A stretch of DNA of 64,000 nt from Candidatus Altimarinota bacterium (GCA_041694255.1 JASMTN010000021.1:231-64230); one strand, 5' to 3'; positions 4,143 through 40,343 are shown, counted from the stretch's first letter. Numbers and translations: made by a program. Notes: generated by a model not told the origin, from the letters alone.

Positions 4143-4679
4143 TTAATTAACTTTTAAATCTTTTATATTATCTAACATATTATTTAAGGCTTCTTTTGAC
4201 TGTGAAGTATAAGCTATTGTATATAATCTTTTTTTACTATCAAACAAATAAGCTTGCACACCATAGTAATCTGCATTTGAATCACTATCTGCAAATAGAT
4301 TATCAAATACCTCATAAGTAAAGTAATATATATTACCTTGTTTTTTTTTAAATTTTGCTTTTTCTAATATATTTGCACCTGGAATTTGTCTTTTAAACTT
4401 ATCAGAAACTATTGTAAAAAATTTTTCCTCATTATTTGGATATGAAGAACTATATTCAAATATAATTAAAGATTCTTTAGAGGAACCTGCATTCTTAACT
4501 TTATTATAAGACTCCAATACTTGATAATCTTTTATAGAAAAAGTTTGATCTACAGTAGTAAAATTATTAGATATATCAAAAGAAAAAGGTCAAAAACTTA
4601 TAAGCCTAGACTCTTCACTATCTCATGAACAGCCAATCAATGTAAACAATAAGGTCATGTATATAAAAAGTTTTTTCAT
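4143..4679 (-). CDS. putative lipoprotein
   Basis: Track ORF 4143-4517 extends through TGA to MKKLFIYMTLLFTLIGCS (a lipobox-like LIGC). Confidence 0.55.
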
Positions 4680-5021: not shown

Positions 5022-5465
5022 TTAATAATTCAATACTTTTTTGATTTGATTTATAGTATATCATTTTCTAGTAAGTTTTTGTAATATATCAAGTTGATTA
5101 ATATCTTTTGCTTTATATTTTTCAATTTCTTTTCTTATTTGATTTCAAATTCATTCATTTATATCATCTATATTTTCTCATATAAGTTCTTTTACATCAT
5201 TCATGTTAACTCACTTTTCTGCTAAACGAGATTTAACATATATAATAGGCTTTCACTTCCTTATAAGATGTGAATCTATATAAGATTTTATAAACTCCCT
5301 ATCATTAAGGTAATTTTTTTCTTTTAGATAGGTTATTGCTCTTTCTATATGATGTTCTGTATAACCCTTTTTTCTAAGTTGTATTAAAAGCTCTTTTTCT
5401 GTTTTGGGATACCTAAATATATAATTTAATGCATAATCTATAATATCCTTTTTTTGATTTCACAT
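5022..5465 (-). CDS. recX: RecX-like regulatory protein
   Basis: 147-aa ORF with repeated helical modules (ELLIQLRKKGYTEHHIERAITYLKEKNYLNDREF..., ILQKLTRKGYTINQIKKVL) typical of RecX. Confidence 0.55.
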
Positions 5466-5482
5466 AAAATATATCTTTAATA

Positions 5483-6049
5483 CTAAAGTTGACTCATAAG
5501 GTTATCCAATTTACTTTTCTTTTCTCTTTCTTCATCTTTTTTGAGTTTTTTAACTTGTATATTATCAAGAACAAGCTGCCATTTATCTAAGTTTGAAGTT
5601 CTTTGAGTAAGGACAATATCTTTTTCTTTTTCATCTTCATGAGCAAGTATCTCAAGATTCATTTGTTCTTCTATATATATCTCATACATTCTAGCTATCT
5701 GAAAGCCCCATAATTCATGAAGTTTTTTAGCTATATGTTTATCACCAGCTGACACATTGATAACAAGCTCAAGCTTTCAACTATCCTCATTATTATCAAG
5801 TGCATAACCACTAGAAAAAGAAGATATTACAAGACGAATCAAAAGATCCCAGTTAAATTCTTCATCTATATACTCTGGATAAAGTAAATCTAAGTCACCA
5901 ACATTAAATTTTGAAAGATAATCTTTATATATTATAGTATCCTCAAAAGCTTCTGGAAGTGGTTCCACAAGTTTTTCATATTTTTCAACTATATCTTTTT
6001 TTTCATCATTATCCCTCAAGTTGTCTATAAATTCTTTAAAATCAAACAT
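5483..6049 (-). CDS. hypothetical acidic protein
   Basis: Track ORFs 5777-6049 and 5483-5755 are one frame joined by an in-frame TGA at 5774-5776 (...NNEDS-G-KLELVINVSAGDKH...). Confidence 0.5.
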
Positions 6050-7274: not shown

Positions 7275-7832
7275 ATGAATATAATCAATTTAATAAAAAA
7301 ATATCGAACATTTTTTTCTCTAGTATGATTTGTTTTATTTTGGGTGTTTTTATTTAACCAATATAGTCCTCAAGAAATTGTAAGTTATATATGATTAGAA
7401 AATGCTTACCTAGTAGTTTTTCTTGTATGAGCATTTTGATGAATATCCACATTAACAGTCACACATTTTTATACAACTATTATAACTTTAACAATATGAT
7501 GAGCAAACCCTTTTTTAATTTGAATATTTGCATGAACTTGAGCTAGCATATGAGATAGTATATTCTATTATCTTTGAAAAAAATGAAAAAAATTAACTAC
7601 TAGCTTTCAAAATAAAATAAAACCAATTTCAGATTGGATTCAAAAACAACCTAAAAAATTAATTCAATTTTTTATTTTTCTATATGCTTGATTTATTCCA
7701 TTTCCAAAAGATTTTTTAATGCTTGCATTAGCATTTTCATGATTTTCATATAAAAAGATAATAATCCCTCTTTTGATTTGAAATATTATTAATTTAAGTA
7801 TATTAGCTTATATAAGTTGAAAATTTTTATAG
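7275..7832 (+). CDS. DedA/VTT-like membrane protein (putative)
   Basis: 185-aa hydrophobic code-25 ORF with a GASIGDSIFYYLGKKG segment. Confidence 0.45.
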
Positions 7833-11444: not shown

Positions 11445-13487
11445 CTACCCCATCAACTTAGAATAGTTAATTTTTTTATCTACAAGTTTTTTAAGTTTTG
11501 TTTCTTTTTCAAGTATATTATGTTTAAGTATGTGCTTTGCTTCTGCCCTTGTACTTTCAAGTAGATGTATATCTTTTAGTGCTTCTTCTGGTAAGTCCAT
11601 ATCTCAAGATTGTTGAGTACCAAGTATAGTACCTGCTCATCTTAAATTTAAGTCTATTTCTGCAAGTTTAAAACCGTCAGAATATTTTTCCATATACTTT
11701 AATCTTCTGTATGATTCTCAAGATTTACTTTTTGTAGCAAGAAAACAGTAAGATTGCAAACTTCATCTTCCTACTCTTCATCTTAACTGATGCAACGAAG
11801 ATAAACCAAATCTTTCAGAATTTTTAATGATCATAATAGTTGCATTTGGAACATCAACTCAAACTTCTATAACTGTTGTTGATACAAGTATCTTTGTCTT
11901 TCAAGATTGAAAATCTCACATAACTTTTGCTTTCTCATCTGCTTTCAATCTACCATGCATAAGTCCTATCTTATCTTTCAATTCAGGGAACATTTCTACA
12001 ACTTTTTCATATTCTTGAAAAGCAGAATTTACATCTTCCAACTTCTCAGACTCTTCTATAAGTGGAGAAACTACATACACTTGCTGGTCTTGCCTTATCT
12101 TATTTATCAAAAATTGTTTAAGTTTTATATATTCATCTTCTGATATAACTTTTGTATGAATTTCTTGTCTTCAAGGTGGAAGCTCATCTATAATAGTATT
12201 TTCAAACTCTCAAAAATAAGAAAGTGCAAGTGATCTTGGTATAGGTGTAGCAGTCATTTGCAACATATGAGGATGTCATTGACTTGAAAGTTTTACTCTT
12301 TGTTTTACTCAAAATTTATGTTGTTCATCAACAATTACAAGTCATAGATTTTTAAATTCTACATCATCTTGTATAATCGCATGAGTTCAAACTACAAAAT
12401 CCAAATTACCCTCTCTTAAATCTTGTTTGATCTGGTCTTTCTCACTTTTTTTAGTAGATCATGTTAAAAGAGCCATCTTATATCATAAAGGAAGTAAGAA
12501 CTTTGAAATGCCTGCTATATGCTGTTTAGCAAGGACTTCTGTTGGAGCAAGAAAAGCTATCTGTTTATTATTTTGTTTCATAAGATAGAAAGCTACTGTA
12601 GTTGCTACAACTGTTTTTCAACTTCATACATCTCATTGTAAAAGTCTCATCATAGTACTTCAACTATGCATATCATCTATTATAGTTTTGATTGCTTTTT
12701 TCTGTGCTTTTGTCAGTTCAAAAGGTATATAAGTTAAAAATTCTTTTATAATATCCCGTTGTGGTTGTGTTGCTTGTCATTTTTTTTCATCTACAGCATT
12801 GATATTTGTAATAAGTTGCCATATAAGAAGTTGTTCAAAATTGAACCTATATTTTGCTTGTTTCAAAGCTTCCATGTTATCAGGAAAATGTATATTTTTT
12901 AAAGCCTGTTTTATTCACAAAAGATTATATTTTTCTATCAAGTAAGAAGGCAAAAATTCTTTATACAAATTATCTATATCATCTATTTTATCAGATATTT
13001 TTTTTTGAAACCAAGATCATTTTATTCATGAAAGATCAGAATATATAGGAACTATCTTTCAAACCAAATTTACATTTACAAGGTCATCATCAAAATTATC
13101 TGAAAGTATCTCAGGAAACCAAAAAGTATATTTACCATAAGAAAATTTAGGTTTTCATGAAAGTAATATAGTATTTCATTTTTTTAAAGTTCTAAGAAGA
13201 TATGTTGCATTCATAAAACTTGCATAAGCAATATTTTGATCTTTATCTTGAAGTTGAAACTCCATTATCTTTTTTCATCTTGGTGTTTTGATAAAATTTG
13301 TATCTACTATCTTTGCTTTTACTACTGCCTTCACTCATTCTTGAAGCTCTCATATGCTTTTGATACTTGTTCTATCTTCATAGTCTTTTGGAAAATAATA
13401 GAAAAAATCCTTAGGTTTTTCAATCCCCTTTTCTTTAAGAGTATTTATATATTTTGCTGATGTTCTTAATCGAGACCTTAATTCCAT
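11445..13487 (-). CDS. recG: ATP-dependent DNA helicase RecG
   Basis: 680-aa code-25 ORF. Contains LQGDVGSGKT, VIVDEQHKFG, MTATPIPRS, HGRLKADEK and QLRGRVGRG. Frame agrees with track ORF 11916-12110. Confidence 0.9.
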
Positions 13488-13513: not shown

Positions 13514-13549
13514 TACCCTAAACTTACTTATTTAATAACTTTTTTCAAA
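13514..13549 (-). repeat. 36-bp perfect direct repeat, copy A (contains the promoter-like element upstream of recG)
   Basis: Identical to 17090-17125. On the minus strand it reads TTTGAAAAAAGTTATTAAATAAGTAAGTTTAGGGTA (TTGAAA-N16-TAAGTT). A TATAAT lies just downstream at 13510-13515. Confidence 0.85.
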
Positions 13550-13591
13550 GGAAAAATTTTTTATAATTTTTTAAAAACAAATGATTATAAA

Positions 13592-13813
13592 TTATTTTAT
13601 ATAAAAATATTCAGTTTCATTATTTTCTAATTCATAACAATAAACCTTATTAAAAGATGTTTCTAAAATCCAATTATTATCTTCTTTTAAATTATCAAAA
13701 GCTTGTTTTGGATTATTTCATTTACTTATTCATATAACTTGAGTATTTTCTATATCTTTTCAATCTGGCTGTTGTGTAAATCATTCATCAGTTAAAAATA
13801 TATATTTTTTCAT
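13592..13813 (-). CDS. small hypothetical protein, last gene of R-M cassette 1
   Basis: 73-aa code-25 ORF. Its start overlaps the methylase stop (TAATG). Confidence 0.35.
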
Positions 13814-14880
13814 TATTTTACTTTAACATAGTGTAAATATTCAACTACTCCATCTTTTTTATGATTTCTGCTTTCAGTTTTATCTGCTTTAAATCTTCTA
13901 TAATCTTTCTTAAAAACTCAATAATCTCATTTAGATGACATTATTTCTTTTATATCATCCAAATTCATAAGTCATTCATCATTATAACTTAAAAATATAT
14001 ATTTTGCATCAATATTATCAATTAAATCTTTATAAGCTTGTTTAACATAACTTTTACTACAGTATAAAGACCTTTGACTAGAATTATCTCTCATTCAAGT
14101 TTTTCATTTTATAGAAGGATTATCATACTTTGCAATAGTTTCAAGTATATGATAATTTCCTGCATATTGTCTATGATTATATGGTGGGTCTAGATATACT
14201 ACATCATGTTTGGTATTTTGTATAAGTGAATTTATATCTTCATTGAATATATCATGTTCTTTATCATTTACATAAAGTTCTGCAGGTTTTACATTCAAAG
14301 TTTTTTGAGCTGATTTTTTTAATTTTTTCAAAAATGCACCATATACACTTGCTGTGTTTGCAACTTTATCTATAGCTTCAAGTAAACTTGTAAGTAAAAA
14401 ATAATACTCATCTTCTGTTATTTTATTATTTTCTTTCCATTCTTCTATTTTTTCTCTTATCCCATCACATTTTAAAGCATTTTCATCAGAAAAATATTGT
14501 CTTTCAAATTCTTTTCATTTAGTTCATCATAATGAATAATTATTGTATATAAATCACTTTTTTCAAGCTAAATTATTTAAGTATTTACAAACTATTTCTT
14601 TATAAGAATTTACATCTCAAATTAAAAGTTCAGGTATTTCAAAAAGTAATCAAGTAAAGTATAAATCTGTATGATTTCAAATATAATGTCTATTTAACAC
14701 ATAACTATAATATTGTAAATCATTTGCTATAACTTTGTGTCATTTTTGTTTAAAAAATCTACCAACTATTCAGGTTCAAGCAAAAAGATCAGAAAAAGTA
14801 TAATCTTTATTTCAAACAACATGAGTTATACCATTTTCTATAAACTCTAAAAGTGAAAGTTTTGATCAAATATAGTTCAT
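13813..14880 (-). CDS. N6-adenine DNA methyltransferase (D12-class-like)
   Basis: 355-aa ORF. Contains MNYIGSKLSL..., FSDLFAGTGIVG (AdoMet motif) and YLDPPYNHRQY (motif IV). Frame agrees with track ORF 14104-14331. Confidence 0.8.
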
Positions 14881-14929
14881 TTACTATTTATTTATTATTA
14901 AATTGATACTTATAGTATTCATTTTTTAT

Positions 14930-15583
14930 CTATTTTCAAGATAATTTTTTATTTAAACTTTCTTTCCATTTTTCAGGAGAAAACCAACCACATCATTCAC
15001 ATCCAAGATTTTCTTCATAATTTTCTTTTCATTTATAAAAATAATTTATTCATAAAAATGCTTGTCTTTTTCAAGTTCTTTTACATTTTTCACAGTATCT
15101 ACTTTTTAAAAGATTATGTTCTCTTACCAAAAGCATAAATTTTGACATAAGTTGTTCATCAGTCATATTTATATAATCTTCTTCTTTTTTTGTCCATCTA
15201 ACTTGTGGAATTCTATGATCAACTTCTATCTTCCTTCAACTTGGTGTATATCATAAAATAGCATCTTTATTGTCTAATAGTTTAATTATTCTTTCTTTTA
15301 ATTTTGGGTTTAATGTTTTTGTTCTTTCTAATGAAACATTTTCTTTTTTTAGAGAAATAAGTTTTCTATGTGGTGTTTTTCTTCAACAAACATCACAAAA
15401 CATATTTTTTGCATAGTTTGGTCAAACTTTTTCCATTTTATAACCTGCTTGTCTTATCATCTGTAATGCTTTTGCTGGTTGACTTCAAGGAAGTTCATGT
15501 TCTGAACAGTGCCATTTTAAGTCTGATAGTATCTCAAAAATTTTATAAATTTGTGTTCATTCTTTAAATGGATTTTTAATCAT
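14930..15583 (-). CDS. HNH-type nuclease, putative restriction endonuclease
   Basis: 217-aa ORF with IEVDHRIPQVRW ... EHNLLKSRYCEKCK ... CEGCGW (HNH plus Cys-rich motifs). Lies between a C-protein gene and a methylase gene. Confidence 0.6.
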
Positions 15584-15596
15584 TGTTAAAACATTA

Positions 15597-15797
15597 TTAA
15601 AATAAATCTTTAATTTTAATTCAAAGTGCTTTTGATAATTTTTCTATATTTTCAAGAGAAATATTTTTTTCTCATCTTTCTACATTTCAAATATAAGTTC
15701 TATGTAAATCACATTTCATAGCCAGTGATTCTTGAGAATATCAAAGTTTTTTCCTAAATTCTCTAAGTTTTTCTCAAAAACTTTTCTTAATATCCAT
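15597..15797 (-). CDS. XRE-family HTH regulator (R-M controller C-protein candidate)
   Basis: 66-aa ORF. [41 protein letters not shown] is a classic HTH_3 pattern. First gene of the cassette. Confidence 0.7.
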
Positions 15798-15843
15798 ATT
15801 ACTTTTTAAATAATAAAAAACAGCCATCATTATAATAAATGAT

Positions 15844-15866
15844 GACTATAAATCTACAGACTATAA
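15844..15866 (-). promoter_or_regulatory. tandem GACTATAA repeats upstream of the C-protein gene (candidate operator)
   Basis: GACTATAA occurs at 15844-15851 and 15859-15866. A 7-bp inverted repeat CATCATT/AATGATG (15825-15844) plus an A-run lies adjacent and could terminate the upstream gene. Confidence 0.3.
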
Positions 15867-15874
15867 GTAGAGGT

Positions 15875-16279
15875 TTATTTTTTAGATTTAGATGTTGCTA
15901 AATAAAAATTTAGATTATTATCTAATCTTTTTACTTTTATATCTTTTCTAATTTCATTTATTAAAATAGTTAAGTAAGGCACATAGTCAAAATCTTTTCA
16001 TTTTGCTTTTTCTCTAAATTCTTGTAATGCAAATAAAACATCAGAGGTTGCAAATAAATGTAAATTATTACAAGCCTTTGCATATCTTATTTCATTTTCT
16101 AAATTTTTTTCTCAGTCTGTTATTCAGCTTAAAGATTCAATAAATTCAATATAAAACCTTAATTTTTCTTTTTTCCACTCAAATTCTTCTTCTTTTTTCT
16201 TTGTTAAATAATATGTTATTGATGCAATTAGAACTCATCACAAAATTGAAATAATAGTTGTAATTATTTGAGTATCCAT
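15875..16279 (-). CDS. hypothetical N-terminally anchored helical protein
   Basis: 134-aa code-25 ORF. One TM helix, then a helical soluble part. Sits 4 nt downstream of the methylase gene. Confidence 0.4.
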
Positions 16280-16283
16280 AACT

Positions 16284-17066
16284 TTACTTCTTAAAAACTA
16301 AAATATACTCATGCTTGAATAGATAATAATCACTATTTAAAGCTCTATACCTCCAAATTCATCAAGTTCATTGTTTTCATCTATTTCACTCCATATTTTT
16401 AACAATAATACTTTTGAGTTTGAAACCCAATTTTTGAGCTTCATTCATACATTGAAAACCTAAAGGTATCCATTCACTTTTTTGATATTTATCTCAAATA
16501 ACTATAACCATGTATCAATCCTTTTTCAATACATTTTTTGTATTTTCAAGAACTTTTGCAAAATCTTGTAAAAATCAGTCTATTCAATTTGAATTTGATA
16601 AATCTTCTTTTTCTTCAGAAAATTTTATTATATCAGCATAAGGAGGATGTAAGATAGCTAAATCAAGTCATTCAATATTTCTATATTTTAATATTTCTTT
16701 TATATCAGAAAGTGTTTTTTTACTTTTACTATCTCATACTCAAAAATGAGCTTTAATTTTTTTACCATCTATTATTTCTTTAGCTTTATCTACAAGCTCT
16801 TTTTGTATATCAATTCATATTATATTTCTTCATAAATCTTCGCATTCAATAGCAGTTGTAGCACTTCCAAGGAAAGGATCAAAAACCCATCATCATTTTT
16901 TTGTATATCTTTTTATAAAATGTTCTGGAATTTGAGGAACAAAATTTCAATGATAATAGTTTGAATGTTTCCCTCACTTTTTTCTTTCTTCTATAACCCA
17001 TAAACTATCTGTAGATATATCTATATCTTTCCAATTTTCCATATCAAAATCATTAAATTTTGGCAT
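16284..17066 (-). CDS. DNA methyltransferase, N4/N6 (ParB-less) family
   Basis: 260-aa ORF. Contains YYHGNFVPQIPEHFIKRYTKKGGWVFDPFLGSATTAIE and AILHPPYADI. Confidence 0.75.
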
Positions 17067-17089
17067 AGTATAATTTTATTTTATAAACT

Positions 17090-17125
17090 TACCCTAAACT
17101 TACTTATTTAATAACTTTTTTCAAA
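17090..17125 (-). repeat. 36-bp perfect direct repeat, copy B (promoter-like, upstream of methylase 16284-17066)
   Basis: Identical to 13514-13549. Confidence 0.85.
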
Positions 17126-17144
17126 CTTTAGTATTAAATTATAA

Positions 17145-17585
17145 TTAATTTTTTATATTTATTTTTTTTATTTGATACAATAAATATATAGTTGTTAAGT
17201 AAATAATAATTATAGGTATGTTAGCAATAATTTGCTCAATATGCTTAAAATCAAAAGAAATAATTGATACTAATATTTCTAAAAAAATTAATCATACATA
17301 TAAAGACTCAACATTTATTGATGTTAACAATAAATTATATATATTTTTTAGTCTAGACTCTTTTTTTTCTTTATTTCAATTAAAATATAAATATAAGTTT
17401 ATTATATTAAAAAATGAAATAAAAAACATAAATAAAATTAATAATCAAAACAAATAAAGAAAAATTGTAAAAAAACTAACATATTCAAAATTATTATAGT
17501 AATCAATAAAAATATAACCATATCAAAAAAATCTTATTATTATTACAATAAGCAATATAGTTAAAAAAAAGTCTTTTATATTCAT
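17145..17585 (-). CDS. hypothetical multi-TM protein
   Basis: 146-aa code-25 ORF, very hydrophobic and low-complexity. It competes with antisense track ORF 17218-17457. Its orientation matches the surrounding operon. Confidence 0.3.
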
Positions 17586-17618
17586 ATTGTGGTAAATATA
17601 TTAAAAAAATAAATAATT

Positions 17619-17692
17619 TGCTTTAAATTTACTTATTTAGTAACTTTTTTCAAATAAAAAATTTTTTATAATTTTTTAAAAATAAATAAATG
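17619..17692 (-). repeat. imperfect (about 85-90% by eye) copy of the cassette-junction sequence
   Basis: Aligns with 13514-13583. Shares TTACTTATTTA-TAACTTTTTTCAAA and AAAAATTTTTTATAATTTTTTAAAAA. Overlaps the stop codon of the methylase at 17666. Confidence 0.7.
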
Positions 17693-18406
17693 TTCATGCA
17701 TAATAAGTAAAAAATTATAATCTTTTGATTTATTTACCCAAAATCAAGTAGCTTGACAATTATGTTGTTTTTTAATAATATCCTCTTTCAGTACAAATCA
17801 AACTTTTAAAAACCTTTCCATTACTTTAAAAGCAAGTGGTTGATACAATTTTTTTCTTCTTGTATCTCAAATAAGTATAGCACAATAAGATCACTTTTTT
17901 AAAACTCTAAAAGATTCTTTAGCAACTTTTTCTATTTCATTACAAAACTGATCTATATCATGTATATTTGATAAATCTTCTTTTATTTCTCAATCAGAAT
18001 ATTTAATTATATCAGAATAAGGAGGATGAGTTAGCACAAAGTCTATACTTTCATCTTTTATTGAAGTTTTTTTTCTTCTTGCATCTCAAAGTTTTATATC
18101 AATATTAGGTTTATTTTCTGATTTAAAATCAAGTAAACTTTTTGTTAGCTTAACTGAGTTAGGATTTATATCATATCATATTAAATTTCTGTTTAAAAGT
18201 TTAGCTTCAATAGCTGTTGTTCAACCTCAAATCATAGGTTCTAATATAGTATCTCATTCTTGAGAATATCTTAAAATTAGGTTTCTAACAACCTCAGGTG
18301 ACCAGTTTCATCTATATTTACTATTGTGAGTTGCTCGATTTCATCTTCTTGGAAAAGACCACACAGTTGTACATTCAAGTTCAAAATTTTCTGGTTGTTT
18401 TTTCAT
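17666..18406 (-). CDS. DNA methyltransferase, N4/N6 family (DpnA-like second methylase)
   Basis: 246-aa ORF. Contains WSFPRRGNRATHNSKYRGNWSPEVVRNLILRYSQEGDTILEPMIGGGTTAIEA and THPPYSDI. Starts directly after the REase stop. Confidence 0.75.
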
Positions 18407-19285
18407 TTACTCAATTATTTCATCTAAAATACCTTCTTTTAACATTTTCAAGTTATATATATTTCAATTTGTTGCATAATAAGCTTCTTCTAAAGGTTTC
18501 AATGCAGTTTTCCATCATAATCAATCAGTTATCCAAAACATTTGAACTCATTGTTCTTGAAGAAATTTATATAAATAATTAAACTCTCAAGATACAGACT
18601 TTAATTTACTTCATCATCAACCATAATAATTAACTTCTATTAAAGATAATGTTTTAGTTTCTTTATTAAAAATTCAAAAATCAAATCTCCTTGATGATTT
18701 ATCTGATTTAACTTCTATTCACCAATTTTCTTTTATCCATTTAGCTGTTGCTTGTTCTTTATACTCACAATTATTTTTATCACAAAAATCTTTTATAAAG
18801 TCCTCTACTAAATTTTCCATCAAAGTTCAGCTTCTATTTTTCCTTGCATTGCTATCAAGTCAAGTTTCTATACCAAATACATAATCTTCTAAATTTTTTA
18901 TATGTTTATTTTCAAAAATTTTTTGCAATCATGAATTTTTGAAAAACTTTATAAGTTCTTTTTCTCAAGCTATATCAAGTTTAACTTTTTTATCAAACAA
19001 ATATTTAACTTCTAATATTTCTTTAGTTTCTTCATCTAATATTAAATTAAATTTTTCTCTTACAGCTAAAAGTATTGGTAAAACTTCCCTAACTTCTGGG
19101 TATTTTATAACAATTTCTAAAAACCTGTCTTCAATGTTTTGTTCTCAAATAAGAGAATTTAATATATTTAATTGAACTTTTATTTTAAAAGTATTTTGTT
19201 CTATTTTTGGGAAATTACAAAAATAACTCCATGTAAAAATGGTTTTTCTAAAAGTTGAAATTAGGTTTTGGAAGTTTTTTTGCAT
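18407..19285 (-). CDS. type II restriction endonuclease, DpnII/MboI-like family (putative GATC-specific)
   Basis: 292-aa ORF with FGIETGLDSNARKNRSGTLMENLVED and EVNYYGGGGSKLKS. I recognise these as DpnII-family blocks from memory only. Confidence 0.6.
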
Positions 19286-19317
19286 AGTAACTTTAAATTA
19301 ATAATAAAAATTTACTT

Positions 19318-20316
19318 TTATAATTTTTTCTTTGCTTTTGATTTAAAGTCTTCTCAAGTATAATTACATCTTAAATAATCTCTATTTAATATATCTAAAA
19401 TTTTTTCAAAATTTGACTTATTTAAATTAATTTTTTTATTTTTATCAAGTTCTAATAATCATCCAAAATATTTATTGTATTCTGCTTCTGAATAAGATTT
19501 TTTTAAGTTATCTAACATTTTTTCATCAAATTTTTTAATCATACTATCATTATTTGAATCTTTATTTTCTGAAATTAATTTTACCTTTTTAGCAATTGAA
19601 TAATTATTTGCTATCATTTCACTTATAATATCTTCATTATCAATATTAAAGATATTATTTTCATCTGAAATAAAATTATCAGTAAAAAATTTTGTAGCTT
19701 CATCCTTAATATATTCTCTATAATCAAAAATTGACTTATATTTATTGCGATTTAAACAAAATACATATTTTCATCATAAGTAAATTACATCAATAGTTTT
19801 TTTTAAATTTAAATATTCTTTATTATCAATACTTGAAAAAATATTTCAACTTTTATTAAAAAAAAGTGGTATATATTTACTAAGTTTAGTTTTATTTACA
19901 TACATTTGTGGTTTATAAAACGATTGTAATAAATAAATATTTTTTTCATTTTTTTTATAATGAATTATCCAACTTCTTACAGTAAAATTATCTAAATCAT
20001 CAATTTTTTCTATTTCCTTTATTTTATCTTTTTTTATTTTACTATCTATCTCTGGAAATTTTATTACATTAGCTTTTTCTTCATAAAAGTTTTTTTGTGT
20101 ATCATCATCTAAATTATACTCATCAAAATCTTTTACAAAAGTTTCTTCATCAACAACAATATTATTTTTATTTAAACATAAATATGGCTTTAAAAAAGTA
20201 TCCTTAATACTTTTTTCCAATTCATTATCCACTTTTATTTTCTTTAATTGAAAATCTTCGTCTTTAGATTTATTTTTACATAAAATATATAGTCATTCAA
20301 AATTAGTATCTTTCAT
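19318..20316 (-). CDS. hypothetical 332-aa soluble protein (KwaB/DUF4868-like by size and context)
   Basis: Code-25 ORF. Frame agrees with track ORF 19846-20232. I recognise no catalytic motif. Paired with the upstream 4-TM gene. Confidence 0.4.
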
Positions 20317-20322
20317 TGTAAA

Positions 20323-20892
20323 TTAAGAGTTATATAAGTAAATTTCATCTGATATTTTTAAACACCTATCTCTAATAATATTATCATAGTTTATGTTATC
20401 ATATTGTTTTTTTATTATATATATTATATAATTATTTGATTCCATAGCAATTATATCATATCAAAATATTAATAAAAATATATTATATTTAAATAAATCA
20501 CTTTTAATATAAATTATAAAAACTGTTCATAACAAAATAATTGTTATCAAAAGTCTTTTATTATCGTCAATTCATAAAAAAGGAATTAAATATGTAAACA
20601 AGTATGTTAAAACTTCATGATTATTATTTTTAACTAAAAATTCATTATCTTTAATTTTATTAAAAAAAACTTCATTTATTTTATTTCAATATTTTGGTAA
20701 CATTATTTTAAATAAGATAATAACAAAAATAATAGAAAATATTAATAAGAAAATTAATAAATATGTTAAAATATTATGATAAAAGTTTGGTATAAAAGAA
20801 GAAAAATTTTTTAAATCTATTATTATAAAAATAATAAATAAGGGAAAATAACTAGTTATAAATAAAGATATTTTAGATAATAAACTTAACAT
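20323..20892 (-). CDS. 4-TM membrane protein (KwaA-like by size and topology)
   Basis: Track ORF 20686-20892 extends through TGA to 189 aa, with about four hydrophobic helices. Confidence 0.4.
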
Positions 20893-20901
20893 AAAAAAAT
20901 A

Positions 20902-21861
20902 TTAATAACTTAAAACAACAATTTCATCAATTTTTCATCTTCAAGAAGAATTTGAATTTATATTTCTTCTTGCTTTGACAGTTTTAAACTTATATCAAGC
21001 ATAAAGTTCTCTTATATAAGGTGTATCATGATTTGATAACATTACTTTTACTCATTTTTTATCAAGTTTTTTAAAAACTTCTGAAAGTTCTTTTTGCTCT
21101 TTTTTTCAAAATCCTCACTCATTATAGCTTGTAAAATTTGCAGTATCAGTTAATACATCATAAGGAGGATCAAAATATACAAAATCACCTTTTTTAGCTT
21201 TTTCTAAAACTGTATCATAAGATTTAAATTGTATATCTGCTTTTGTTTTATTTAAAAGTTTTGAAGTATTTTGTATATTTTCTTTTTGCACAAAATCAGG
21301 ATTTGTATATTTACCAAAAGGAACATTGAATTGTCAGCTTTTATTTACTCTATAAAGTCAATTAAAACAAGTTCTATTTAGATATAAAAACCTTCAAGCT
21401 CTTTGTATGTTTGAATACTTTTCTTTCCAATTATCTTTCCTATCCCAAGCTCTTATATCTAAAAAAGTTTCTTTATCATAATTTAAGGTTTCAAGAAAGT
21501 TTATAAGTTCTTTTGGATGATTTTTTATAACCTGGTAAGTATTTATAAGTTCTTCATTTACATCATATAAAGAAGATTTTTTTCTTTGTAAATTAAAAAA
21601 CACAGCTCATCATCAAACAAATGGCTCAAAATAATTATTAAACTCTTTTGGAAACAAACTTTCAAGTTGTGAAATTAGTTGTCTTTTTCATCAAACCCAT
21701 TTTACAAAAGGTTTAGCTTTTATGATATCGTTATTTTCTTCAAAAAATTGTTGTCATGATTTTAAATCACTAAATGCTCATGATAATAACCAAGATTGTA
21801 TGATAAGATAATTTATTCAATATTCTTTTGCCAATTTGTTTATTACTTCTTTATCTCACAT
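20902..21861 (-). CDS. Dam-family N6-adenine DNA methyltransferase (DpnM-like)
   Basis: 319-aa ORF. Contains VKWVGGKRQL, EPFVGGGAVFF, NEELINTYQVIK and FDPPYD. Frame agrees with track ORF 21394-21603. Confidence 0.85.
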
Positions 21862-21893
21862 TTTTATAGTTTAGTTATAATATAATTAATTTT

Positions 21894-21921
21894 ACTATAT
21901 TTATTTAACAACTTTTTTCAA
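21894..21921 (-). promoter_or_regulatory. promoter-like element of the dam/DpnII operon
   Basis: The minus strand reads TTGAAA-N16-TATAGT. The -10 lies about 33 nt upstream of the dam ATG. Confidence 0.45.
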
Positions 21922-21923
21922 AT

Positions 21924-22094
21924 AAAAAAAACCGGTTGTATTCAACCAGCCCTATATATTGTGCATAACTTAGAGGGCCTAACCGGTTTATAGTCGTTAG
22001 GACCCCTAAAATAGTAGGTTGCCTACTGTTGTCAGTATATTAGCAACAACAGTTTTTTTTGTTTATGTTTAAGCAACCCTAGAATTCTAGGATC
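21924..22094 (-). ncRNA. candidate structured small RNA of unknown class (about 170 nt)
   Basis: GC-enriched relative to its flanks. Own promoter-like element at 22101-22128. Hairpins: CCTAGAATTCTAGG, CTGTTGT/ACAACAG, GTAGG/CCTAC and GGGCCTAAC/GTTAGG(A)CCC. Terminal hairpin CUGGUUG-AAUA-CAACCGG followed by U8. Confidence 0.45.
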
Positions 22095-29656: not shown

Positions 29657-29730
29657 AGCGGATGACGGGACTTGAACCCGTGCAAGCAGAGCTGAATTCT
29701 GCTATGCTACACCAATTACATCACACCCGC
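29657..29730 (-). tRNA. tRNA-Gly (anticodon UCA), UGA-decoding tRNA of genetic code 25
   Basis: GCGGGUG acceptor (G1-C72, C2-G71, G3-C70) and U73 discriminator, as in tRNA-Gly. Anticodon stem GCAGA/UCUGC with loop AUUCAGC, giving anticodon UCA. Confidence 0.85.
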
Positions 29731-33612: not shown

Positions 33613-34090
33613 CATATTCTAAAAATTCAAAGCTTATTCAGTTTTCTTCCTTTTTTCAACTACGAGAAGATAATTTAAAATCTTCTTGTATTTTTTTTAT
33701 AAAATTTTGTTCAAAAAACACATCACAATTAAAATTTGAATAAACTTGAGTTATGTATATTTTATCAGCATACTCTATACCCTCTTTATATATTCTTTTT
33801 CCTCACATTAAAAAAATATCACCTGATGTATCTTCTATAGCTTGTTTTAAACTAGAAAAAACTTTATAATTATCTGCTAGATCCAATGAAGAGGATATTA
33901 TTATATTTTCCCTTCATGGTAAAGGTCTAACTTTTTCTGGTAGTGAATTCCAAGTATTTTTTCACATAATAACAGTTTTTCATTTTGTTTTTTGTGAGAA
34001 AAATTTCAAATCTTCTTTAATAGTCCAACAAAGGTCATTATTTTTTCATATACCATAGTTTTCATCCATTGCAAATATAAGGTTTATCAT
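33602..34090 (-). CDS. folA: dihydrofolate reductase
   Basis: 162-aa ORF. Contains MINLIFAMDENYGIGKNNDLCW, TVIMGKNTWNSLP, PLPGRENIIIS and IFLMGGKRIY. Its 3' end overlaps the convergent gene by 11 nt. Confidence 0.85.
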
Positions 34091-34117
34091 TTCTCTACTT
34101 GAAAAAAGTTAAAAATT
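34090..34117. repeat. 28-bp perfect direct repeat, left copy (island 2 boundary)
   Basis: TTTCTCTACTTGAAAAAAGTTAAAAATT, identical to 40316-40343. Starts at the first base of the folA start codon complement. Contains the last codons and stop of res. Confidence 0.9.
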
Positions 34118-40315: not shown

Positions 40316-40343
40316 TTTCTCTACTTGAAAAAAGTTAAAAATT
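40316..40343. repeat. 28-bp perfect direct repeat, right copy (island 2 boundary, contains TTGAAA upstream of thyA)
   Basis: Identical to 34090-34117. Confidence 0.9.

Follow-up and report, generated by a model that had tools for sequence, protein, structure and literature searches.

Previous studies on restriction-modification (R-M) genes described a class of R-M insertion with long target duplication (Nobusato et al. 2000, Gene 259:99; Furuta et al. 2010). In the work of Furuta, Abe and Kobayashi (2010, NAR 38:2428; PMC2853133), members of this class were recognized by restriction (R) and modification (M) genes lying inside an insert of less than 20 kilobases (kb), by direct repeats of more than 30 base pairs (bp), by the absence of linked mobility genes, and by an empty site in a related genome. 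The repeats were 46-423 bp long, often ran across start or stop codons, and were found mostly in naturally competent species; the mechanism was not known, and double-strand breakage was suggested. How R-M and other defence genes spread in the absence of transposases and integrases is not settled, and long target duplication has been documented by genome comparison alone. We show herein an R-M island in a window of 64,000 nucleotides (nt) from a Candidatus Altimarinota bacterium (contig C21:231-64230 of a metagenome-assembled genome of 934 kb in 42 contigs), in which four related repeats, designated copies A to D, separate three inserts ahead of the housekeeping gene recG. Judged from its sequence, the locus more likely represents a further case of the long-target-duplication class, in a lineage where the class had not been described.

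The locus resembles the published cases in its complete R and M units, its unique direct repeats, a repeat that runs across a gene end, the transformation genes of the host (ComEC and DprA are both encoded in the genome), and a G+C content of the inserts below that of the surroundings (20-21% in the island versus 24-28% in the flanks, with 20-32% over the window). Both R and M genes are present in each of the larger inserts: an HNH endonuclease and two methylases between copies B and A, and a DpnII endonuclease and two methylases between copies D and C. The inserts measure 3.5, 0.5 and 4.3 kb, with no linked integrase or transposase, and the repeats match over 36 of 36 nt (A/B), over 64 nt at 92% identity (A/C), and over a borderline length (D/C), their common core not being dispersed in the genome. 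Unlike the published cases, this locus contains three consecutive inserts at one site, giving a four-copy target array; the target is a predicted promoter, which ends up before every insert; non-R-M defence blocks of the same genome show the signature too; and the host is a recoded member of the Gracilibacteria.

Other described systems share single features with the island. The DpnI and DpnII cassettes of Streptococcus pneumoniae, studied by Lacks and colleagues, reportedly lack a recombinase of their own and are replaced through transformation and recombination, and are said to be alternative cassettes at one locus, between long flanks homologous among strains. As in the pneumococcal DpnII system, one unit of the island combines a Dam-like methylase, a DpnII endonuclease and a DpnA-type second methylase. 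Here, however, the units are stacked in tandem with short duplicated junctions between them, and the gene order is M - slot - R - A instead of the pneumococcal M - A - R. For the other unit, the comparators are the C-protein-controlled type II R-M systems and the iceA-hpyIM and NlaIII (CATG) systems of H. pylori and Neisseria, respectively. It shares with these an IceA/NlaIII-family HNH nuclease next to a D12-class methylase, a helix-turn-helix (HTH) C-protein, and a C-box-like site upstream; it differs by an extra N4/N6 methylase at its head (DpnA-paralogous, 35% identical), as in genomes G157 and G059, and its specificity is only predicted.

Integron arrays also consist of promoter-proximal cassettes in the same orientation with a recurring junction sequence. 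Unlike integrons, the island has no integrase, its junctions take the form of direct target duplications, and each junction would have its own promoter where integrons have a single Pc. The window contains no IntI-type tyrosine recombinase, and no copy of the repeat, on either strand, folds into an attC-like hairpin (z -0.28 to +0.42 versus shuffles). An integron-like reading was rejected on these two grounds, the missing integrase and the junctions that do not fold. A preliminary description of this DNA, made from the sequence alone, had already concluded that the island has no dedicated recombinase; indeed, Pfam and PADLOC found no integrase or transposase domain in any island open reading frame (ORF), and the single tyrosine recombinase gene (PF00589) of the assembly lies on contig C41.

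Reading the window with translation table 11 gives gene fragments only, while full genes appear when TGA is taken as a sense codon. TGA occurs at invariant glycines (the Walker A motif of RecG, for example, becomes GSGKT only if TGA encodes glycine), a tRNA with the anticodon UCA is encoded at 29657-29730, and the named closest homologues of one island protein come from Candidatus Gracilibacteria. The host is a Gracilibacteria lineage in which UGA encodes glycine (code 25). Every island gene lies on the minus strand and has 4-18 TGA codons, which indicates that the island genes are at home in a code-25 lineage. The phenomenon is hereby extended to a recoded, reduced-genome lineage of a candidate phylum.

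All four repeats are on the minus strand. Copy A (13514-13583) contains a relic of a dpnA 3' end (13552-13583), a T-run, the core and a 14-nt right segment; its -35 element is at 13548-13543, its -10 element (TAAGTT) is at 13526-13521, and it lies 27 nt before the recG ATG (13487). Copy B (17090-17125) contains the core and the 14-nt right segment, with the -35 at 17124-17119 and the -10 (TAAGTT) at 17102-17097, 24 nt before the ATG (17066) of an N4/N6 methylase gene. Copy C (17619-17692) contains a methylase 3' end, a T-run and the core, with the -35 at 17653-17648 and the -10 (TAAATT) at 17631-17626, about 45 nt before the ATG (17585) of a gene for a 146-amino-acid (aa) membrane protein, TM146. 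Copy D (21894-21929) joins the T-run of an upstream terminator to the core, with the -35 (TTGAAA) at 21921-21916, a 16-nt spacer and the -10 (TATAGT) at 21899-21894, 33 nt before the ATG (21861) of a Dam methylase gene. The 22-nt core common to the four copies reads TTTGAAAAAAGTTRYTAAATAA on the minus strand.

The homology blocks have sharp borders. Copies A (13514-13549) and B (17090-17125) are identical at 36 of 36 nt, and their similarity stops at once on either side; A (13519-13582) and C (17624-17687) align without gaps over 64 nt with five differences (92% identity); and D shares about 32 nt with C, with three mismatches. Three segments account for these relations: L, which is the dpnA 3' end plus the T-run; K, the core; and R1, GTAAGTTTAGGGTA. 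In minus-strand order the island then reads terminator-T-K (copy D), DpnII-type unit, L-K (copy C), TM146, K-R1 (copy B), NlaIII-type unit, L'-K-R1 (copy A) and recG. With up to three mismatches, the core occurs four times in the window, against 0.28 sites expected, and none of 100 shuffled sequences reached four. With up to one mismatch, only the four island sites are found in the whole assembly, and none in 40 relatives, including two of the same genus. The 22-mer has 6 genome and 25 metagenome matches in public collections, all of them single copies in unrelated organisms with dissimilar flanks. The preliminary description had listed the 36-bp direct repeat, a longer degenerate copy reaching the methylase 3' end at 17666, and a fourth related element at 21894, and had asked for a search of the remaining genome for the motif; the repeats all stand as listed, copy C covering the stop and last codons of the methylase gene, and the search confines the core to the island.

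The four copies have the geometry TTGAAA-N16-TAnnnT, as had been noticed before, with a -10 element of the form TA(A/T)(A/G)(G/T)T. Between each copy and the ATG that opens the next transcription unit there are 24-70 nt; these units begin with the genes of the Dam methylase, TM146, the N4/N6 methylase and recG. A promoter profile of the genome, obtained by TTGAAA anchoring in 496 upstream regions from a crude code-25 gene call (134 anchored sites), was TTGAAA-N16-TAtaat, with T and A enriched at +22 and +23, which corresponds to TAnnnT after a 16-nt spacer. By this agreement, the copies are putative sigma-70-type promoters. Genome-wide, the spacer carries at most 0.13 bit of information per position, yet the four copies agree at 14-16 of 16 spacer positions; the copies are therefore homologous by descent and not merely alike in consensus. 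The possibility of a generic housekeeping promoter was rejected for the same uninformative spacer, and because the weaker matches in the genome have just TTGAAAAAA. The regions upstream of recG in relatives are unrelated to copy A and gave no indication of a native recG promoter.

Copies D and C enclose exactly the DpnII-type unit. Its first gene (20902-21861; PF02086, E=1e-69) encodes a Dam-like, DpnM-like N6-adenine methyltransferase of the D12 class, 61-67% identical to the first gene product of DpnII units in genomes G046 and G206. Then come a variable slot (19318-20892), the DpnII-family restriction endonuclease gene (18407-19285; PF04556, E=7e-90), for which the family predicts a GATC-type specificity, and, as the last gene, that of a DpnA-like N4/N6 methyltransferase (17666-18406; PF01555), which reaches into copy C with its stop and ~7 preceding codons; the Dam-like, DpnII-family and DpnA-like members of a DpnII unit are thus all present. 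The order Dam, variable slot, DpnII endonuclease and DpnA-like methylase recurs in G046, G206 and the metagenome contig L076; G046 and G206 have a small ORF between the endonuclease and the DpnA-like methylase, and L074 has a different putative nuclease between the Dam and DpnA-like methylases. The slot contains unrelated genes in G046, G206, L074 and L076. The endonuclease has a patchy distribution, occurring in 10 of 201 genomes of the class.

Copies B and A enclose exactly the NlaIII/IceA-type unit (13592-17066), which PADLOC matched as REase_II. It is headed by the N4/N6 methylase gene (16284-17066; PF01555), the product of which is 35% identical to the DpnA-like methylase, and continues with genes for a 134-aa protein (15875-16279), the HTH C-protein (15597-15830; PF01381), the IceA/NlaIII-like HNH nuclease (14930-15583; PF05315) and a D12 methylase (13813-14880; PF02086), followed by a 73-aa ORF (13592-13813). 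The order N4/N6 methylase, HNH nuclease, small ORF and D12 methylase also occurs in G157 and G059. As the N4/N6 methylase heads the unit there too, the methylase that seemed an extra in the 3.5-kb block of the preliminary description belongs to the NlaIII-type unit; the gene content given for that block holds once TGA is read as glycine. The HNH nuclease is found in 3 of the 201 genomes. That the repeats delimit cassettes, as had been proposed, agrees with the two bracketed R-M units recurring in other genomes.

In six other contexts, the same DpnII- and NlaIII-type units have neither the core beside them nor any flanking direct repeat of at least 16 nt. The core therefore belongs to the insertion site and not to the units, and the idea of the core as a part of mobile units was discarded. 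Upstream of the core, copy C consists of the final codons of the DpnA-like gene (... H L F I F K K L stop), a coding 3' end whose nucleotide sequence is conserved in G046, G206 and L074-L077. The left flank of copy A is identical to C at 31 of 32 nt, comprising ~7 codons, the stop and an 11-nt spacer, with no methylase gene attached; this segment begins 8 nt past the stop of the 73-aa ORF. When a 34-mer from C was searched elsewhere in the genome with up to six mismatches, it matched A alone. By this sequence identity, the left flank of copy A is a relic of a DpnA-type methylase 3' end, in accordance with the earlier suspicion that a methylase end had been left there.

On balance, we lean towards the view that the four repeats are descendants of one promoter region, duplicated at serial recombinase-free insertions before recG. 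The ancestral site would have been a short spacer between a small RNA terminator and recG, with a sigma-70-type promoter. First, the DpnII-type unit (Dam ... DpnA) would have entered with a doubling of about 30 nt (T-run, -35 and spacer), giving copy D and a second copy just past the dpnA stop. The NlaIII/IceA-type unit would then have entered just downstream of dpnA with a doubling of L+K+R1 (~70-80 nt). Such a duplication would include the last ~7 codons of dpnA, and could thereby account for the orphan methylase 3' end on copy A. Lastly, the 0.5-kb TM146 cassette would have split the left copy into C and B with a doubling of K; alternatively, this step may have been a crossover within the 36-nt A/B identity (K+R1) between variants with and without TM146. 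The promoter activity, the order of events and the mechanism of duplication are what we infer from this arrangement. If correct, it makes the locus unusually legible, as three stacked events at one site, with an internal relic that fixes the polarity of one duplication. Because a copy of the promoter heads every insert and recG keeps one, the insert would be expressed, the host gene would not be silenced, and the target would be renewed for the next insertion. Expression of the newcomer and preservation of host gene expression may thus be a functional by-product of the duplicated promoters, given their predicted activity.

Several observations weigh against serial insertion. No empty site was found: the same-genus genomes G001 and G002 (RecG 66% identical) are rearranged on both sides, with recG, the small RNA and a 174-aa gene on different, rearranged contigs. 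Look-ups of the exact proteins (RecG, both N4/N6 methylases and ribosomal protein S9) returned no strain variants on record. It is A, not B, that carries the relic, which simple one-step duplications fail to explain, so that a third event or a crossover must be assumed. Divergence is uneven: to the right of the core, C differs from R1 at 4 of 14 positions, against 0 of 36 differences between A and B; either the step-3 duplication ended within this segment or the stretch arrived with the cassette. The D/C repeat is at the lower edge of the published criterion of more than 30 bp, and the sequence is a metagenome-assembled contig, for which linkage in one molecule is assumed. Finally, a stock promoter scan flagged D and C but returned 92 sites against 88 in shuffles, and thus does not discriminate in such AT-rich DNA; for this reason the promoter assignment is itself an inference, drawn from geometry and position.

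The strongest competing explanation, less probable in our estimate yet to be taken seriously, is that the cassettes already carried a shared promoter and were gained or swapped by homologous recombination there, through Campbell-type integration of a circle or transformation-mediated exchange. The exact 36-nt A/B identity with its abrupt borders is what a crossover resolved inside it would leave, and a crossover of a variant with the NlaIII unit beside dpnA and a variant with TM146 gives the present mosaic; in addition, the genome encodes ComEC and DprA, and recG has ruvB as its neighbour. However, the homologous DpnII- and NlaIII-type units lack the promoter in the six other contexts, the repeats reach into a coding 3' end, and other repeat-flanked inserts of the genome have non-promoter sequence; these three points together fit target duplication better than pre-existing homology. 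Exchange by homology would still need a prior event that placed the repeat on both sides of a unit, and 22-36 nt is short for RecA-dependent exchange. The preliminary description had favored recombination at promoters that the cassettes already shared. Its island-specific, promoter-like junctions stand, but shared homology as their cause is not supported, given the units without promoter elsewhere and the repeats that reach the coding 3' end. The order of cause and effect is more likely the reverse, with the shared junctions being products of insertion instead of the homology used by the cassettes. As the last step, a homologous crossover at the youngest pair, A/B, is possible.

A similar signature is found elsewhere in the same genome. 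A perfect 28-nt direct repeat, TTTCTCTACTTGAAAAAAGTTAAAAATT (34090-34117 and 40316-40343, without further extension), flanks a type III R-M/Pycsar island, 6.2 kb in length, that separates folA from thyA, the right copy being the -35 region of thyA. On contig C17 (L078), a repeat of ~110 nt at 4355-4465 and 7414-7516, of which 78 nt are a perfect match and the rest is gained by allowing two mismatches, corresponds to the 3' end (~36 codons with the stop codon) of a gene for a Wzx-like polysaccharide flippase that is itself intact. It encloses 3 kb of inserted DNA encoding an AAA_14/DUF4143 ATPase and an AbiEi/AbiEii-like toxin-antitoxin pair, and its orphan relic copy adjoins a UDP-GlcNAc-epimerase-like gene; comparison with G016 revealed no empty site for this insert. 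On contig C40, a perfect 28-nt repeat (2425-2452 and 5299-5326) overlaps the 3' end of a group-1 glycosyltransferase gene and has two genes for AAA ATPases (ATPase_2/DUF234 and AAA_14/DUF4143) between its copies. The genome thus has at least three further inserts with a target-duplication-like signature, two of them with non-promoter repeats. Since the C17 and C40 repeats are not promoters, the process appears neither promoter-specific nor restricted to R-M genes, and the parallel inserts of non-R-M defence genes in this small genome suggest that it acts on accessory DNA in general, without restriction enzymes as the driving force.

The 28-nt repeat of the second island contains TTGAAAAAAGTTA, the same 13-mer as in the core. 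Moreover, TTGAAAAAAGTT occurs at 14 sites in the genome, seven of them intergenic, and six of these seven lie at a border of one island or the other. Away from the islands, about 2 of 53 intergenic TTGAAAAAA sites continue into GTT, from which the chance of coincidence is roughly 0.02-0.04. With this frequency of GTT at other sites, and with two independent origins only, a site preference is a weak lead. A doubtful extension of serial insertion is that the recG-proximal promoter is a self-regenerating capture site, used by a recombinase-independent process that perhaps prefers TTGAAAAAAGTTA sequences, which also flank the second defence island. If it were true, defence islands would grow as promoter-separated arrays in the small, transposon-poor genomes of Gracilibacteria, like an integron without an integrase.

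It is unlikely that the island is an assembly artefact, in which strain variants or a circular element were joined into the chromosome at short repeats. The source is, to be sure, a 42-contig metagenome-assembled genome, repeats of 28-36 nt are shorter than or comparable to assembly k-mers, and a different route through the A/B node would yield a 3.58-kb circle and leave an empty site. An assembler, however, cannot make repeats or four distinct flank combinations, so that the junctions must exist in the reads; the same repeat-flanked architecture is seen on three contigs; and the relic at A has diverged from C (31 of 32, then a border), and is therefore no collapsed copy.

Slightly less likely still is an integron- or att-like attachment site for a recombinase acting in trans, specific for the motif with TTGAAAAAAGTTA. 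The 13-mer shared with the second island and the border position of six of the seven intergenic TTGAAAAAAGTT sites are what such a site would lead one to expect. Against this, there are just two independent origins, with the chance of coincidence given above; the C17 and C40 inserts have unrelated repeats; the duplications range from 28 to ~110 nt in length, unlike a fixed att core; and no integrase lies nearby, the assembly having one tyrosine recombinase, and the repeats lack attC-like folding. Finally, it is highly improbable that selection holds the copies alike as a shared promoter and operator co-regulating the R-M units and recG, even though each of the four copies closely precedes a first gene in the same orientation, with the -35 and spacer as the best conserved part; this reading was rejected because the sole variable core positions (R and Y) fall in the only dyad, a small TTATT-N-AATAA, and break it in C and D, and because the block conserved between A and C enters the upstream coding sequence without regulatory rationale, while the -10 differs in copy D, the C-protein, as the only regulator of the island, has its own, different site, and no further regulon members were found in the genome.

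The left border of the island is the terminator of a G+C-rich small RNA gene of ~165-200 nt (22128-21928, minus strand), which has its own predicted promoter (22128-22101, TTGAAA-N16-TATAGT) and, at 21953-21928, an intrinsic terminator. Both same-genus relatives possess the small RNA at 81% identity, in different genomic contexts; the homology ends exactly at the terminator T-run, beyond which there is a convergent tRNA-synthetase-like gene. It had no match in Rfam, even at E<=1. At the other end of the island, recG (11445-13487, minus strand; Pfam RecG_wedge, DEAD and Helicase_C), whose orthologues in the genus are 66% identical, is the housekeeping gene now behind copy A.

Within the DpnII-type unit, the variable slot encodes a KwaA-like protein of 189 aa with four transmembrane segments (20323-20892; PADLOC KwaA, E=1e-16) and a 332-aa protein without a family match (19318-20316). 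The latter, adjacent to the KwaA-like protein, matches neither KwaB (DUF4868), the partner of KwaA in the Kiwa defence system, nor any Pfam model. In DpnII-type units elsewhere in the Gracilibacteria (L059, L060, L074 and L076), the slot is occupied by a 580-aa protein, by 96- and 321-aa proteins, by a 181-aa protein, or by a PDDEXK_11 protein. The NlaIII-type unit also has a slot, between the first methylase and the nuclease. Thousands of proteins, from Gracilibacteria, Epsilonproteobacteria (Sulfurospirillum) and other groups, share 73-80% identity with the DpnA-like methylase, which is unusually conserved across phyla for an R-M methylase. TM146, a multi-pass membrane protein (17145-17585, minus strand), is the sole gene product of the 0.5-kb interval between C and B, and has neither a family match nor a paralogue. 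The membrane and unknown ORFs of the island show no paralogy among themselves and no copies elsewhere in the genome.

Ahead of the C-protein gene, a direct/dyad repeat, ACTTATAGTC-N8-TATAGTC, and a hairpin (15849-15820) occur at 15820-15870 on the minus strand. This site, which we take to be C-box-like from its resemblance to the operators of C.AhdI and C.PvuII, is separate from, and unrelated to, the four repeats. The listed start of the C-protein (15830) falls within the hairpin and the C-box-like repeat; translation probably begins at the third ATG (~15797, MDIKK...), which the C-box and a TATAAT closely precede.

Some other repeats were observed in the genome. On contig C17, an isolated 26-nt pair (20717 and 24770) flanks ORFs of 299 and 890 aa beside a tRNA-like sequence. 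Contigs C2 (~5070-5600) and C25 (~47-530) have CRISPR-like arrays at their ends, in which the 36-nt repeat GTTTCGACGACTGTTATTTCAGTCTTTTAGTTAAT recurs every ~72 nt. A dispersed exact repeat of 21-23 nt, AGTTACAAGTT(T)AAAAGTAGCAAG, is present on contigs C11, C18, C34 and C35, and contig C22 contains collinear segmental duplications 5.5 and 7.4 kb apart.

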